A stretch of 64,000 bases of DNA, taken from NCBI GenBank assembly GCA_965214705.1, contig OZ243972.1:448001-512000 (forward strand), in the 5' to 3' direction. Position 1 is the first letter of the stretch, and every line of letters starts with the position of its first letter. The notes below the pieces were generated by a model. It made no database searches and was not told where the DNA came from. It was given only the letters and a program-made list of their open reading frames with translations. Source of the DNA: Alphaproteobacteria bacterium. GTDB lineage: Bacteria > Pseudomonadota > Alphaproteobacteria > UBA828. Of this stretch, positions 49,254-55,349 are shown in pieces. The translations under genes were made by a program, and so were the position numbers.

Positions 49254-52200
49254 TCACACCTTCGCAGGGCGTCGGTCACCGGCGCCGCGCACCGCCCCTA
49301 TCGCGACACTCAACCCGGCGAGAAACATGAATGCTTCCTCGCCGAGCAGATGCGCAAAGGTCATGCAGTACGGGACGATGACGATGACCCAGGCCACGGT
49401 GGCATCCCGGGCAAGCGACTTCGGCGCTACCCATTGCGTGCGCAGAAGCAAGACGATGGCGGACAGAAACAGAAGCAGAGGGACGATACCGGCCTCTCCC
49501 AGCAACATAATGAATAGATTGTGAGGGTCGGGCAGATCGCCGCTCCATGTGACGGGGGCGCCCTCCAGGTATTTCAGCGCCCTCAGACCGTGACCGAAGA
49601 CGGGCGCCTCCATGGCCTTCTCGAATCCCAGCCGCCAAAGCAGCGGTCTGTCCTTCGCCAGGGCGGCGCAGATGAAGCCGTCATCGATATCGTGGCTGCG
49701 CAGACCGTACAGCTCCCACGGCATGCAGCCTTGGAAATCGTTACCCGCGACGGCCAGCGAGAGAAGCCTGATTCCGGCCAATTCGGGCGGGACGGAACCG
49801 GTGAGACGGTTGTCGGCCAGCCACAGTTGCCCGAGATTCGACAGATTGGCGATCTCCCGCGGGATGGGACCCATCAGGCGATTGTCGTCGAGCGACAGCA
49901 TGGTCAGACGCGTCAGGTTCCCCAGTTCCGGTGGAATGGGGCCGGTGAGTCGGTTGCCGTCGAGCCGCAGCAGATGGAGATGGGCCAGCTCGCCCAGCTC
50001 CGGGGGGATCCGCCCGGTCAGGTTCATGTCCCGCAAGTCCAGTGCGATGATGCGACCCCCTCGACCGATGGTGACGCCCTGCCAGGACGCGACGGGGCGA
50101 GCGAAGCTCCAGTTCAGCGCCGCGTCGCCGGCCAGGGTGTCGCGCATGCGCATCAGACGCGCGCCGTCTTCGAACAGGCCCGGTTTGGTCCAGGGCGAAG
50201 GATCGCAGAGCAGATCGGCGGAATCCAGATCGTTGTGCCGTACCTGCGCTGCTCGCGCCGTAGCCGGAAGGCAGTCGGCAAACGCGTTGCCGCCCAGACG
50301 GAGGACCGCAAGATGAGCCCACCGGTCGAGAGCCTCGGGGAGAGCTCCGTGCAAACGATTGTTCTCGAGCCGCAGCTCCTCCAGACGCGACAGGTTGCCA
50401 AGCTGCGGATGGACGTTGCCCGTCAAGATGTTGTTCTCCAGCGCGAGCACCCGCAGACCGGTCAGTGTGGTCAGTCCCTGCGGGATGCCGCCAGTGAGTT
50501 CGTTGCCGCCAAGACGCAACGAAACGAGTGCCTGCAACGCGCTCAGTTCCGGCGGGATCTCGCCGGTCAGCGCGTTGTTTTCCAGTACCAGCGTCCGCAG
50601 CCCGGTCAGGGTGCCCAGTTCCGGCGGGATCGGTCCCGCAAGCCGGTTGTTGCCAAGACGCAGAACGGCAAGGGCGTCCAGAGCCGACAGCTCTGCGGGA
50701 ATCCGCCCGTTCAGTCCCACGTGCGACAGATCCAGGGCGATGACCCGCGGCCCTTCCGCGGCCTCGCCGGCGATGTTGGGCATCCCGACGGTGACACCCC
50801 GCCAATAGCCGATGGGGACCGCGTCGCTCCAGTTTAGTTGGACGTCGCCGGCCAGCACGTCCCGAGCGGCCAACAACGTGGCGCAGTCGTCATACAGGCG
50901 CGGCAGTGCTTCGGGAAAGGATTGGCAGAACAGGTTCCGGTCGAGAACCCGACCGCGACCGCGACCCTGCGCCCGGAGTTCGCCAGCCGCATCGTCATAG
51001 TCCAGGCGCAACGCTGGCAGCGCGGCCACAGAGGGCGGTGCGGGGCCGCTCAGACGGTTCCCGCTCAGCCACAGGTCGGTGAGCCTCGACAGCTTGCCCA
51101 GTTCCGGCGGCACGGAACCGGCCAGGAGGTTGCCGCCCAATGCCAGCATGCGCAGACCGGCGAGGTTGCCGAGCTCGGGCGGGATGTCGCCGGCAAGCCG
51201 ATTGCGGCCCAGGCGCAGAGAGGCGAGTCCGGCAAGCTGCCCCAACTCCGCGGGGATGCGTCCGTTCAAACCCATTTGCGTCAGATCCAGCGCCGTCACG
51301 CGGCCGTGCGAGCGATCCACCGCGACACCCTGCCAGTCGTCGACCGGCACATCGCGGCGCCAGTTGAGCGGCGCATCCCCGGCGAGGCTGTCTCTCACCG
51401 TCAGCAAGAGGGTGCAATCGGCGAGCAGGCCCGGATCGATTTTCTTCGGCCGGCAGAAAACCGGCCCGTCGAGGTCATGGTCGGCAATCTCGTGGAGCGC
51501 CGGCGGGAAGGGGCGGTTCAGGTCGTTGCCGGTGAGGCGCAGGAAGAAGAGATTGCCCAGTCCTTCCAGTTCCGGCGGTACGGGGCCGGCGAGCCGGTTA
51601 TGGCTCAGGTCCAGAGCGACGAGGCCGCCCAATTCGCCGAGTTCCGCGAACAGGCGCCCGTTCAGTCCCGCGCGCGGCAATGCCAGTGCGGTCACGCGCT
51701 TCGGCGAGCCGCCGACGGTGACGCCCTGCCAGAACTCGATGGGGATGTCCTCGCTCCAGTCAAGCGCCGCGTCGCCGGCCAGGACGTCCTTGTTCGCCAG
51801 CAGAAGGCCGCAGTCGGCTTGCAGATCGGAAGTGACGCTGGAGGAGGGTCGACAGAACAGGCGCCTTACCGCATCCGGACGATCTCGGTTCATGCGGCGG
51901 TCCGCCGCCTGCGCCGCCTCTGCATCGTCGAGCGACCGACGACGGCGCAGATCGTGGAGGTCCAGGTCGTGGTTCGCGATCCGGTAGAGACGCCGCGGAT
52001 AGGGACGTTCCAGATCGTTGCCGGAGAGACGTATTAAGGTCAGCTTCTCCAGCTCTTCGAGTTCCGGCGGCACGGAGCCGGTCAGGCGGTTGTGCTTCAG
52101 CCACAACTCCCTGAGATGCGACAGTTTCCCCAGTTCCGGCGGAATCGGGCCGCTCAAGGCGTTGAAGGAGAGCACCAGCCGCTCCAGGTCGGACAGCTCT

Positions 52201-55200: not shown

Positions 55201-55349
55201 CCTTCGACTTGCGGCATCCCCCAAAGATGCAGCTCCCGCAGGCTGGTCAGAGCGATGACAGCCAACGTCCAGAACGCGACCGCGATCAGCGCGGTCTGGA
55301 GCGCCACGCTTCGGCGCAGCAGCAAGACTGGATGTCTGAACAGGAACAT
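49254..55349 (-). CDS. O-antigen ligase/polymerase (Wzy_C-like) membrane protein with nine inserted plant-type LRR modules
   Basis: N-terminal TMs with RLTGAFVNPN and SASRT; C-terminal DR..LW...P.FGHG...PHNLF.MLLGEAGI plus TMs; the middle is LxxLxLxxNxLTGxIPxELG repeats with C..LL...D.LAGD..L.W....P...W.GV caps. Confidence 0.88.
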   Translation of the reverse strand: MFLFRHPVLLLRRSVALQTALIAVAFWTLAVIALTSLRELHLWGMPQVEGVIARATMACMVILVGLVGIRCLFAWRKSGSRVSVLSTVGGMPGVLLLGAVASYLAIGFAVMDEADWLPGTAASLRFAVLAFGVLVAAAVGGRAVLERVGADRLLQGVLVVLISSCVIILASPILRDLGILPPYRIPFRLTGAFVNPNGAGLIGCMTVALAAAFLTNGGPRTLGWLGLAAGVAATVGSASRTALVILGALMVLFLLINVSGKPRAFVLALAATGFVGIAGFVGVAAFSDGLSQWSMLRNVSGDVLERKLFCDPSPTANPGANCAILLAARDILAGDIALNWSRTVPVNRWQGVTVEGPEGRVTGLDLAVLGLNGSIPPDLGRLDRLVSLSLGRNRLTGRIPPELGNLASLEYLHLGLNALTGAIPPELAKLKNLEELWLQGNRLTGPVPAAIGELRLSVLRLSGNDFDSIPPKINAVADHDLGRLVLCLPPPRTSPALFEDCTTLLAAKDTLAGDAPLDWHAAVPIGLWRGVTVGGPEGRVIALDLPGKGLNGRIPPRLGRLDGLVLLNLADNRLTGSIPPELGQLVDLRILALDRNALTGTVPAELARLPRLRALWLRENRLTVPVPSALFDVPDHDLGRLVLCLPPPRTSPALFEDCTTLLAAKDTLAGDAPLDWHAAVPIGLWRGVTVGGPEGRVIALDLPGKGLNGRIPPRLGRLDGLVLLNLADNRLTGSIPPELGQLVDLRILALDRNALTGTVPAELARLPRLRALWLRENRLTVPVPSALFDVPDHDLGRLVLCLPPPRTSPALFEDCTTLLAAKGTLAGGAPLKWRAEIPIGLWQGVTVGGPEGRVIALELPRTGLRGRVPAAFGHLAGLRSLVLDGNALTGAIPPELGKLTDLERLGLANNALTGPIPPELAKLSSLRKLWLSGNRLTGFLPPELRAVAGRDAPCPAAPAHNPGLRADCALLLAARDILAGDAPLGWSEDIPIEFWQGVTVGGSPERVTRLDLSRSGLNGRIPPALGRLDRLVSLHLNRNRLTGPVPPELGELSDLERLVLSFNALSGPIPPELGKLSHLRELWLKHNRLTGSVPPELEELEKLTLIRLSGNDLERPYPRRLYRIANHDLDLHDLRRRRSLDDAEAAQAADRRMNRDRPDAVRRLFCRPSSSVTSDLQADCGLLLANKDVLAGDAALDWSEDIPIEFWQGVTVGGSPKRVTALALPRAGLNGRLFAELGELGGLVALDLSHNRLAGPVPPELEGLGNLFFLRLTGNDLNRPFPPALHEIADHDLDGPVFCRPKKIDPGLLADCTLLLTVRDSLAGDAPLNWRRDVPVDDWQGVAVDRSHGRVTALDLTQMGLNGRIPAELGQLAGLASLRLGRNRLAGDIPPELGNLAGLRMLALGGNLLAGSVPPELGKLSRLTDLWLSGNRLSGPAPPSVAALPALRLDYDDAAGELRAQGRGRGRVLDRNLFCQSFPEALPRLYDDCATLLAARDVLAGDVQLNWSDAVPIGYWRGVTVGMPNIAGEAAEGPRVIALDLSHVGLNGRIPAELSALDALAVLRLGNNRLAGPIPPELGTLTGLRTLVLENNALTGEIPPELSALQALVSLRLGGNELTGGIPQGLTTLTGLRVLALENNILTGNVHPQLGNLSRLEELRLENNRLHGALPEALDRWAHLAVLRLGGNAFADCLPATARAAQVRHNDLDSADLLCDPSPWTKPGLFEDGARLMRMRDTLAGDAALNWSFARPVASWQGVTIGRGGRIIALDLRDMNLTGRIPPELGELAHLHLLRLDGNRLTGPIPPELGNLTRLTMLSLDDNRLMGPIPREIANLSNLGQLWLADNRLTGSVPPELAGIRLLSLAVAGNDFQGCMPWELYGLRSHDIDDGFICAALAKDRPLLWRLGFEKAMEAPVFGHGLRALKYLEGAPVTWSGDLPDPHNLFIMLLGEAGIVPLLLFLSAIVLLLRTQWVAPKSLARDATVAWVIVIVPYCMTFAHLLGEEAFMFLAGLSVAIGAVRGAGDRRPAKV
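52883..53918. repeat. 471-bp (157-aa) tandem duplication, about 2.2 copies, apparently identical
   Basis: ctcgaacaacgcggggctgg recurs at 52911, 53382 and 53853. Confidence 0.92.

Follow-up and report, generated by a model that had tools for sequence, protein, structure and literature searches.

The Wzy_C superfamily includes the WaaL O-antigen ligases, the O-oligosaccharyltransferases of the PglL type and many Wzy polymerases. The enzymes PglL, PilO and TfpM transfer glycans linked to undecaprenyl pyrophosphate (Und-PP) to periplasmic proteins, and WaaL has a topology of 12 transmembrane (TM) helices and essential Arg and His residues. In our study we analysed a window of 64,000 nucleotides from an Alphaproteobacteria bacterium (assembly GCA_965214705.1, contig OZ243972.1, positions 448,001 to 512,000 of the forward strand; positions given without a contig name are those of the window). 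A gene at 49254-55349 on the minus strand encodes a protein of 2031 residues (P0001), a membrane glycosyltransferase of the Wzy_C/WaaL fold with an array of leucine-rich repeats (LRRs) in one of its loops. One passage of PMC3643930 places PglL in the family that includes the WaaL ligases, and one of PMC10920833 names the O-Lig family GT121 of CAZy.

Compared with WaaL (7TPG), P0001 likewise exceeds the gathering score of Wzy_C, has 12 predicted TM helices with a big periplasmic loop before the last three, and carries conserved Arg and His-Asn motifs in predicted periplasmic segments. However, this loop comprises about 1640 residues with nine LRR modules, whereas that of WaaL is short and helical. 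Furthermore, the gene lies in a small cassette of Wzx-type and GT4 genes, no lipid A-core genes are nearby, and the family has no sequence-level match to any PDB chain. PglL, PilO and TfpM belong to the same superfamily as P0001, whose C-terminal half gives a weak TfpM match, but the loop of the known enzymes of this group lacks a repeat array, the P0001 gene adjoins neither a pilin gene nor any other gene for a target, and the NCBIfam scores are far under the cut-offs. The Wzy polymerases use flipped Und-PP-linked units at the periplasmic face, and the P0001 gene, too, is paired with genes for a Wzx-like protein and glycosyltransferases. In contrast to the polymerases, its cassette lacks co-polymerase and export genes and the protein carries a large insert of a protein-binding type.

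The reading frame of the gene is uninterrupted (2031 codons and the stop, no internal stop codon), and its GC content at the three codon positions (0.71/0.49/0.80) is similar to that of the neighbouring genes. The N-terminal half (residues 1-287, 54489-55349) contains nine predicted TM helices, the residues R188, G191, F193, P196 and N197 and an S-R motif near position 238. It is followed by the LRR block (residues 305-1895, 49665-54437), predicted to be extracytoplasmic, with the modules M1 to M9 of 133-240 residues each, and by the C-terminal half (residues 1896-2031, 49257-49664), which consists of a periplasmic segment, three TM helices and a cytoplasmic tail. The motifs and the nine modules of altogether about 1600 residues named in an earlier note on this DNA are all seen in the translation; the motifs read FRLTGAFVNPNG, GSASRT, DRPLLW, APVFGHG and DPHNLFIMLLGEAG.

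Wzy_C (PF04932) matched P0001 with 36.6 bits (E 4.9e-9) in two stretches, above the Pfam gathering cut-off of 31.7 bits. The better stretch, residues 1899-1962, corresponds to positions 82-149 of the 149 positions of the profile. The other one, detected at 54459-54674 (residues about 226-297) when the host genome was scanned in six frames with PF04932, corresponds to positions 2-70. As these two stretches flank the LRR block, the block interrupts Wzy_C between about positions 70 and 81 of the profile. Scanned separately, the last 162 residues gave a Wzy_C match of 33.5 bits; hmmscan found no Wzy_C match in the first 320 residues. The LRR families matched far over their cut-offs (LRR_1 with 245 bits, LRR_8 with 214, LRR_4 with 185, and LRR_14).

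Relatives without the insert join the two ends. A phmmer search of the full library with the N-terminal 320 residues yielded 121 proteins at E<=0.001, of which many comprise 420-480 residues, and ten of the 121 were scanned with Pfam. Four (P0134, P0136, P0148 and P0153, 436-461 residues) contain a contiguous Wzy_C domain and no LRR. P0134 (436 residues, Wzy_C positions 6-148 contiguous) is 48% identical to residues 18-257 of P0001 (E 2e-53) and 44% identical to residues 1899-2029 (E 9e-31); P0136 is 43% identical to each half. The loop between TM9 and TM10 comprises 58 residues in P0134 and about 1640 in P0001. Both ends of P0001 are thus parts of one Wzy_C/WaaL-like domain. Among the other scanned relatives, three of 582-638 residues contain the C-terminal part of Wzy_C, two of them together with about one LRR module, and one of 1101 residues has several LRRs. 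One of 904 residues (P0152) carries an Ig-like domain (SCAB-Ig match) in the same loop in place of the LRRs, and the last one, of 428 residues with an LRR match only, is probably a fragment. It seems that the TM9-TM10 loop generally accepts inserts of binding domains.

P0001 is too long to be folded whole, and the fold was examined by proxy on the insert-free P0134. Its AlphaFold2 model, built with 34 relatives (predicted local distance difference test, pLDDT, 89.9; predicted TM-score 0.90), had WaaL (7tpg_B) as its sole Foldseek match in the PDB at E<=0.001 (E 1.7e-7, TM-score 0.55/0.58, 17% identity in the structural alignment); RodA came next with E 0.09. Residues 1-300 and 1885-2031 of P0001, submitted as two chains, were predicted to form a complex with an ipSAE of 0.81 in three of three runs (best of three controls: 0.00), passing a mark attained in the calibration of the predictor by 51 of 78 solved complexes and, among mismatched pairs, by 2 of 108. 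Contacts agreed to at least 83% between the runs, the partner pLDDT was at least 73, and the predicted contacts join TM3/TM4 with TM10/TM12. This pass may reflect the likeness to a solved fold, both halves being parts of one protein. The idea that the two ends are the halves of a single WaaL/Wzy_C-like protein is hence borne out by the Pfam stretches, the insert-free alignments, the WaaL fold match and the packing of the halves. A syntenic orthologue of 986 residues from a related locus (L001) could be modelled whole (pLDDT 85.5) and showed confident helical N- and C-terminal parts, three confident LRR modules and linkers of low confidence. The Foldseek matches listed for this full model were all LRR ectodomains and are uninformative on the membrane domain.

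Hydropathy indicates nine helices before and three after the insert. With the N-terminus set inside, Lys and Arg account for 15 of 69 residues in the short inside loops and for 2 of 50 in the short outside loops. In two of three related loci (L002 and L003) an in-frame fusion joins the C-terminus to the glycosyltransferase GT4a. GT4 enzymes use nucleotide sugars in the cytoplasm. This natural fusion places the C-terminus in the cytoplasm, and therefore the loop three helices earlier outside. The Cys pair found in eight of the nine module caps fits an oxidising compartment. Charge bias and GT4 fusions together place the LRR block, by prediction, on the periplasmic face, as had been supposed. 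In 49 aligned members with and without inserts, R188, G191, F193, P196 and N197 as well as R1901, P1916, G1919, G1921, H1943, N1944, G1951, E1952 and G1954 are conserved in at least 90% of the sequences; in the predicted topology these residues sit in the outside segments adjoining the insert. R188, R1901 and H1943 are putative counterparts of the Arg and His residues known as essential in WaaL. P0001 is likely to be an active transferase.

Each of the nine modules consists of a cap, C-x(12-13)-C-x-LL-x3-D-x-LAGD...W...W-GVTV, and of 24-residue repeats LxxLxLxxNxLxGxIP after it, about 3-6 LRRs per module. Eight caps with two Cys start at residues 310, 487, 644, 801, 954, 1166, 1299 and 1475; the ninth, at 1715, has one Cys. 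The strict repeat motif matches 28 times, with a spacing of 24 within the modules. The caps had been described as LRR-NT-like with Cys and Trp, but LRRNT_2 (PF08263) had no match in P0001 at E<=1. The caps represent a variant in which the Cys pair lies ahead of an LL..D.LAGD..L.W motif; a distant protein with LRRs and Wzy_C (P0121) does match LRRNT_2, with 28.7 bits. M2 and M3 are identical and M4 is related to them, owing to a recent tandem duplication of one module (52770-53918, 471-bp unit, 2.4 copies, 97% matches). Apart from this pair, different modules share 44-69% identity.

The repeats are of the plant receptor type, as the earlier note had claimed. The 50 structural matches listed for the model of the L001 orthologue are all ectodomains of plant LRR receptors, among them ERL1, FLS2, BRI1, HAESA, MIK2 and PEPR1 (E down to 1.7e-22, 19-31% identity). 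P0001 shares the 24-residue LxxLxLxxNxLxGxIP repeat with ERL1, FLS2, BRI1 and HAESA, but has nine short capped modules instead of one long solenoid, and a variant cap instead of LRRNT_2. Plant-type LRRs are also found in bacteria, in the LRR domains of the Xanthomonas proteins XopAC, XopAE and XopL, and the NCBIfam models of the XopAC and XopAE LRR regions matched P0001 with 220 and 206 bits, under their cut-offs. Unlike the plant receptors and the Xop proteins, P0001 has no kinase, Fic or ubiquitin-ligase domain, and its array lies in the loop of a membrane enzyme.

Across the orthologues the modules follow the order M1-(M3)n-M4-(M5)n-M6-M7-M8-M9; the middle modules are duplicated or lost, and for each module a positional counterpart is found. 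In 77 relatives with the full architecture, the median identity of the best-matching module was 62-80% compared with 65% for the N-terminal and 68% for the C-terminal half, where taking the best match per module inflates the values and the LRR scaffold itself accounts for part of the high conservation. Since the modules are ordered, differentiated and as conserved as the enzyme core, the array does not resemble a hypervariable receptor. This conserved collinearity argues against a fast-evolving immune-like sensor and points to partners of the array that are fixed and conserved.

The architecture is not restricted to this genome. Among the best 120 database matches 77 contain both halves around 3-11 caps (1157-2388 residues), including two further proteins of 2031 residues (P0017 and P0053). 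By BLASTP, the remaining matches contain the N-terminal half only (4), the C-terminal half only (3) or neither (36), and some of the latter are more distant LRR and Wzy_C proteins of up to 3258 residues. In four of four such distant proteins scanned, Wzy_C is contiguous to about profile position 105 and the LRRs come after it; LRR arrays thus entered the Wzy_C loop at more than one place. The same module type also occurs on proteases and other secreted-protein domains in the precomputed Pfam annotations of database matches. In the host genome such modules are confined to copies of the LRR-Wzy_C family (7 regions). The LRR-Wzy_C architecture is frequent in sequence databases and common in environmental genomes. 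The ESM Atlas returned for the whole protein insert-free Wzy_C clusters only (0.84, a lead-level score); the lack of a large LRR-Wzy_C cluster among the Atlas representatives is not evidence of rarity.

The earlier note knew of no described example of this architecture. In the literature we likewise found no paper combining a Wzy_C, O-antigen ligase or Wzy enzyme with LRRs, supplementary files lying outside this search, and the text of PMC10920833 contains neither "leucine" nor "LRR", while its supplementary sequence lists might include family members. In sequence databases, on the other hand, examples abound. The architecture is real and recurrent in many environmental bacteria and seems to be undescribed.

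P0001 is followed by a set of glycan genes on the same strand. Three GT4 glycosyltransferase genes are arranged in tandem: GT4a (48000-49250) begins 3 nt after the stop codon of the LRR gene, and its paralogues GT4b (46744-48003) and GT4c (45506-46747) each follow with an overlap of 4 nt. The three genes are mutually 80-86% identical at the nucleotide level. A gene for a polytopic membrane protein of 440 residues (P0122, 44170-45492, GC at third codon positions, GC3, 0.83), a probable Wzx-type flippase, comes next, and its end overlaps the convergent gene of an AsnB-like glutamine amidotransferase on the plus strand (42187-44244). In three of three related loci the order of LRR-Wzy_C, three GT4s, Wzx-like and AsnB-like genes is kept with 68-83% protein identity. 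In two of these, which belong to related metagenome-assembled genomes (MAGs), the fusions of LRR-Wzy_C with GT4a comprise 2240 (L002, 9974-16696) and 2279 residues (L003, 9851-16690). The same architecture and synteny thus recur in other genomes. Order and tight packing of three GT4 genes, a flippase gene and a converging asnB had been described correctly, except that the flippase is recognised by language-model likeness only. P0122 had no Pfam match at E<=0.01, including PF01943 and PF13440, and no NCBIfam match. It shares 238 of 256 features with the Polysacc_synt/Polysacc_synt_3 clusters (Atlas score 0.99), a strong lead from the language model alone that it is probably a flippase of the Wzx type (Polysacc_synt). 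Orthologues with 75-80% identity occupy the same position in L001, L002 and L003. The AsnB-like protein matched Asn_synthase with 385.8 bits; its best NCBIfam match, the XrtA/PEP-CTERM amidotransferase TIGR03108, reached 531.7 bits, below the cut-off of 816.9. In L001 the asnB orthologue comes after the flippase gene on the same strand.

No PCP/OPX (polysaccharide co-polymerase and outer-membrane export proteins; Wzz/Wzc/Wza) or other export gene was found in the cassette at any of the four loci looked at, and the cassette encodes no second Wzy_C protein. We also considered a link to exosortase and PEP-CTERM proteins, suggested by weak matches to PEP_O_lig_1, stp2 and TIGR03108, and rejected membership in this system: the host genome (98.5% complete) has no match to the exosortase family PF09721, and the scores are under the cut-offs. 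A role in defence, prompted by GT4-conflict Pfam matches of 38-45 bits, was rejected for lack of PADLOC support. Of the cassette products, only the AsnB-like protein had a PADLOC match, a marginal one to QueC (E 6.6e-4, 17.9 bits); the LRR protein, the flippase-like protein and the three GT4s had none. In the genome that carries L001 (G461), the membrane-domain family has two further members (reading frames of 585 and 551 residues, C1:166572-169045), encoded about 14 kb downstream of the gene for the 986-residue protein on the same strand. The glycan locus there may be larger and comprise three paralogues.

We are close to certain of the architecture and setting of P0001, i.e. a split Wzy_C domain with an LRR array in a glycan cassette. 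For its function we propose the following. The three GT4 enzymes would assemble an oligosaccharide on Und-PP at the cytoplasmic face, the AsnB-like amidotransferase would probably amidate a sugar or precursor, and the Wzx-like protein would flip the lipid-linked glycan. The Wzy_C domain would then transfer the glycan at the periplasmic face by means of the conserved Arg and His residues flanking the insert. The LRR array, directly above the active site, would serve as a fixed scaffold presenting the acceptor. Envelope proteins, one or several, are the most plausible acceptor and would make P0001 an O-oligosaccharyltransferase with built-in substrate recruitment. That the array is a binding scaffold bringing the acceptor to the enzyme is in our judgement evenly poised, and the same balance holds for the complete account of architecture, setting, scaffold role and acceptor together. 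The choice of proteins as acceptors is more tentative, and we rather doubt it than trust it.

Protein acceptors are favoured since LRRs bind mostly proteins or peptides, since the cassette has no genes for polymer export and works as a portable unit, and since the eukaryotic TMTC proteins set a precedent for a solenoid array on a transferase of lipid-linked sugars. In these, a luminal array of tetratricopeptide repeats (TPRs) serves substrate recognition. Passages of PMC7001481 and PMC7801869 describe TMTC1-4 as components of O-mannosylation from the GT-C clan with TPR arrays. The likeness to P0001, a polytopic transferase of lipid-linked sugar with a solenoid array on the non-cytoplasmic side, is a functional analogy only; the sequence families are unrelated, the repeats are TPRs instead of LRRs, and the TMTC array is C-terminal with dolichol-P-mannose as the donor.

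Several observations weigh against this proposal. Ligases, O-oligosaccharyltransferases and polymerases cannot be told apart by the Pfam family Wzy_C or by the WaaL fold, and the Wzx partner fits a Wzy polymerase equally well. The N-terminal Wzy_C stretch of P0001 (22.1 bits, E 4.6e-4) is by itself under the Pfam cut-off, and a profile of the 34 insert-free relatives found no chain among the PDB sequences at E<=1. The NCBIfam matches that might have named a class are far too low, with 16.6 bits for PEP_O_lig_1 (E 0.0027, cut-off 188.1) and 12.8 bits for TfpM in the C-terminal half (E 0.043, cut-off 600). Neither a conserved candidate gene for an acceptor, in the host locus and the related loci, nor an initiating phosphoglycosyl transferase was found in the cassette. 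PF02397 (Bac_transf) had no match in the host genome (G000, 7.9 Mb), and the initiating transferase for the cassette glycan would therefore belong to another family. Furthermore, the remaining copies in the host genome are disrupted by insertion sequences (IS) or located at contig ends, so that the gene may be dispensable. To these the two caveats on module conservation mentioned above have to be added.

A further version of the scaffold reading would assign a client-specific docking site to each LRR module, and a bolder one would regard the Pro/Ser/Thr-rich, disulfide-bounded loops of the caps as the acceptors themselves; we consider this unlikely. A serious rival, though rather improbable to us, is that P0001 is a Wzy-type polymerase of a Wzx/Wzy pathway. 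The array would then be a scaffold for the growing chain or for co-polymerase and export partners and would set chain length or couple polymerisation to export. Such a role fits a cassette in which a Wzx-like flippase and three GT4s accompany the enzyme and a second Wzy_C protein is missing. It would also agree with the number of 3-11 modules among the orthologues, arising from duplication or loss of middle modules as in a device setting length. According to a passage of PMC10920833, many polymerases fall under Wzy_C, and their fold class is also that of the ligases. The missing PCP/OPX genes in all four cassettes, however, do not fit a polymerase. Structurally, the insert-free relative has a ligase as its sole significant neighbour, though few polymerase structures exist. 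The preference of LRRs for proteins or peptides also speaks for protein partners of the array.

It is less probable still that the array is a sensor, as the earlier note had suggested, in which an environmental or host molecule bound to the LRRs would switch the transferase or change its acceptor. The resemblance of the LRRs to the ectodomains of plant peptide and steroid receptors (see the identities and E-values above) and the position of the insert in the loop that carries the conserved Arg and His residues would suit such a switch. Nine differentiated and ordered modules, conserved like the enzyme, nevertheless exceed what a switch needs. The array is predicted to be periplasmic and hence would lie behind the outer membrane, P0001 has no attached signalling domain, and the PADLOC results, with the marginal QueC match as the single hit, give a sensor in defence no support.

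A loss of transferase activity, with the membrane domain merely anchoring a periplasmic LRR protein for display or adhesion, appears very improbable to us. The modest Wzy_C score and the decay of several copies in the host genome would allow it. Against it stand the Arg, His, Glu and Gly positions shared with the insert-free relatives and kept in at least 90% of the 49 sequences, the TM halves constrained about as strongly as the modules, and the conserved linkage to GT4s and flippase with natural GT4a fusions.

That the reading frame is an assembly chimera of an O-antigen ligase gene joined to unrelated LRR repeats can be practically dismissed, in spite of two contig ends of the assembly inside family copies and the 471-bp tandem repeat inside the gene, because in the 77 matches from other assemblies both halves likewise enclose LRR modules, which keep the same order; moreover, gene and synteny recur in three related genomes, three other copies in the host genome share the TM9-LRR junction, and a contig of 660 nt from an independent short-read assembly (X1 record 2, 49438-50097) crosses the junction between LRR block and C-terminal half. 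X1 may be the source sample of the assembly. Logan contigs from four runs of four studies (X1, X3, X7 and X8) cover 30, 30, 30 and 28 of the 30 bins between 49000 and 55600, as fragments of 160-660 nt that contain many joints induced by repeats. The TM9-LRR junction is crossed by none of those listed; fragments stop near 54473-54477. The contig ends C1:1-1346 and C2:705045-706700 of the host assembly, with identical match statistics, fall inside LRR-Wzy_C copies, which demonstrates the difficulty of assembling such repeats and touches the exact module count of P0001. The assembly probably broke there, and the two contig ends may overlap.

The earlier note had argued against a chimera from a diverged paralogue at 4629-9676. 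This region does contain the same TM9-LRR junction, but it is an IS-split 5' fragment rather than a diverged paralogue. The degraded copy (4614-5540 and 9393-9677, plus strand) is 94% identical to the first about 1190 bp of the P0001 gene, reaches through the junction to residue about 396 and is split at about residue 302 by nested IS copies (5540-9395), in which a transposase of the rve type and an AAA_22 ATPase are encoded. One member of a pair of inverted 3.3-kb copies with 99.9% identity (6092-9395, plus strand, and 25235-28538, minus strand; 459-residue rve/Mu-type transposase and 266-residue AAA_22 ATPase) is the element that splits the degraded duplicate. A 390-bp piece of another repeat lies at the break (5540-5929, corresponding to 28915-28526). 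This repeat of 1.4 kb (1217-2652 and 28915-30350, 100% identical, reading frame of 460-475 residues with a weak UPF0236 match) is probably another IS. Further LRR-Wzy_C copies were found at C1 2489072-2498010 and C3 588315-576711, both interrupted by insertions. The C3 copy contains two copies of a frame of 602 residues, which recurs at a third place and is read as a putative IS transposase. Pieces of the C-terminal half occur elsewhere, as a remnant on C3, at the start of C1 and near the end of C2.

Directly upstream of the P0001 gene and on the same strand are two tandem tyrosine recombinase genes (55451-56602 and 56606-57727; Phage_integrase and Arm-DNA-bind_3; GC3 0.89 and 0.90). The LRR gene had been said to head an operon. 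It is indeed the first of the glycan genes, but because of the two integrase genes in front of it not necessarily the first of the transcription unit. A consensus scan of 55200-55700 for promoters and terminators (sigma-70-type sites only) found none, also not in the 98-nt gap upstream of the gene, and is uninformative.

With the N-terminal half as query (E<=1e-10), no match was found in 60 relatives of the host (among them 20 same-genus species and 36 same-family genomes) or in 400 sampled genomes of its phylum. In the order of G462, a carrier labelled Vicinamibacterales, 2 of 151 genomes, G462 included, had a match. Not found in the 60 relatives and adjoining two integrases, the cassette is probably mobile. 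The three carriers of the related loci are labelled as MAGs of different phyla or classes (Gammaproteobacteria, Vicinamibacterales and Terriglobia). The cassette proteins of the host and L001 are 69-83% identical; the housekeeping proteins flanking L001 share 65% (AdoHcyase), 62% (ABC ATPase) and 42% (PPK) with their best host matches, and MTHFR, also flanking L001, has no match in the host. These patterns of presence and identity indicate that the cassette probably spread horizontally. Composition gives no signal of transfer, since the GC content of the window (0.668) equals that of the genome (0.667-0.669).

Other parts of the window also contain mobile or decayed genes. A truncated GT4 gene (259 residues, C-terminal half only) adjoins an IS5/IS1182-type transposase (39366-41550, minus strand) and is another decayed glycan gene of this plastic region; the transposase region has a second copy with 75% identity at 30488-31555. 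The mobile elements at the left end surround a gene for a protein of 426 residues (2800-4080, plus strand) in which an HNH endonuclease domain is fused to an N6/N4 DNA methylase. Beyond the integrases follow the gene of a SNF2-family helicase of 1125 residues with an N-terminal SWIM zinc finger (59337-62714, plus strand) and an unusually long tRNA-Ile(GAT) of 92 nt predicted by ARAGORN (63597-63688, plus strand). The latter is about 6 kb away from the integrases and hence not an obvious attachment site of the island.

How enzymes of the Wzy_C family such as WaaL, PglL and Wzy choose their acceptors is poorly understood. The graded relatives of P0001, with no insert, with one module, with an Ig-like insert or with 3-11 modules, could be used to test how recognition and catalysis are coupled. 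Plant-type LRR modules are in use as extracytoplasmic parts in soil bacteria, in this case within a membrane enzyme, and the six-gene glycan cassette appears to move between distantly related bacteria. If each module were a docking site that captures a particular envelope protein, or an unfolded segment of a partner, for the Wzy_C site, the cassette would be a self-contained and horizontally transferable machine for targeted O-glycosylation. If instead the cap loops were the acceptors, P0001 would become a glycan-decorated periplasmic scaffold. In either case P0001 would be the first transferase of lipid-linked glycans in bacteria to carry a built-in modular array for substrate recognition in its catalytic loop, and an array that recruits protein substrates might be of use in targeted bacterial glycoengineering.

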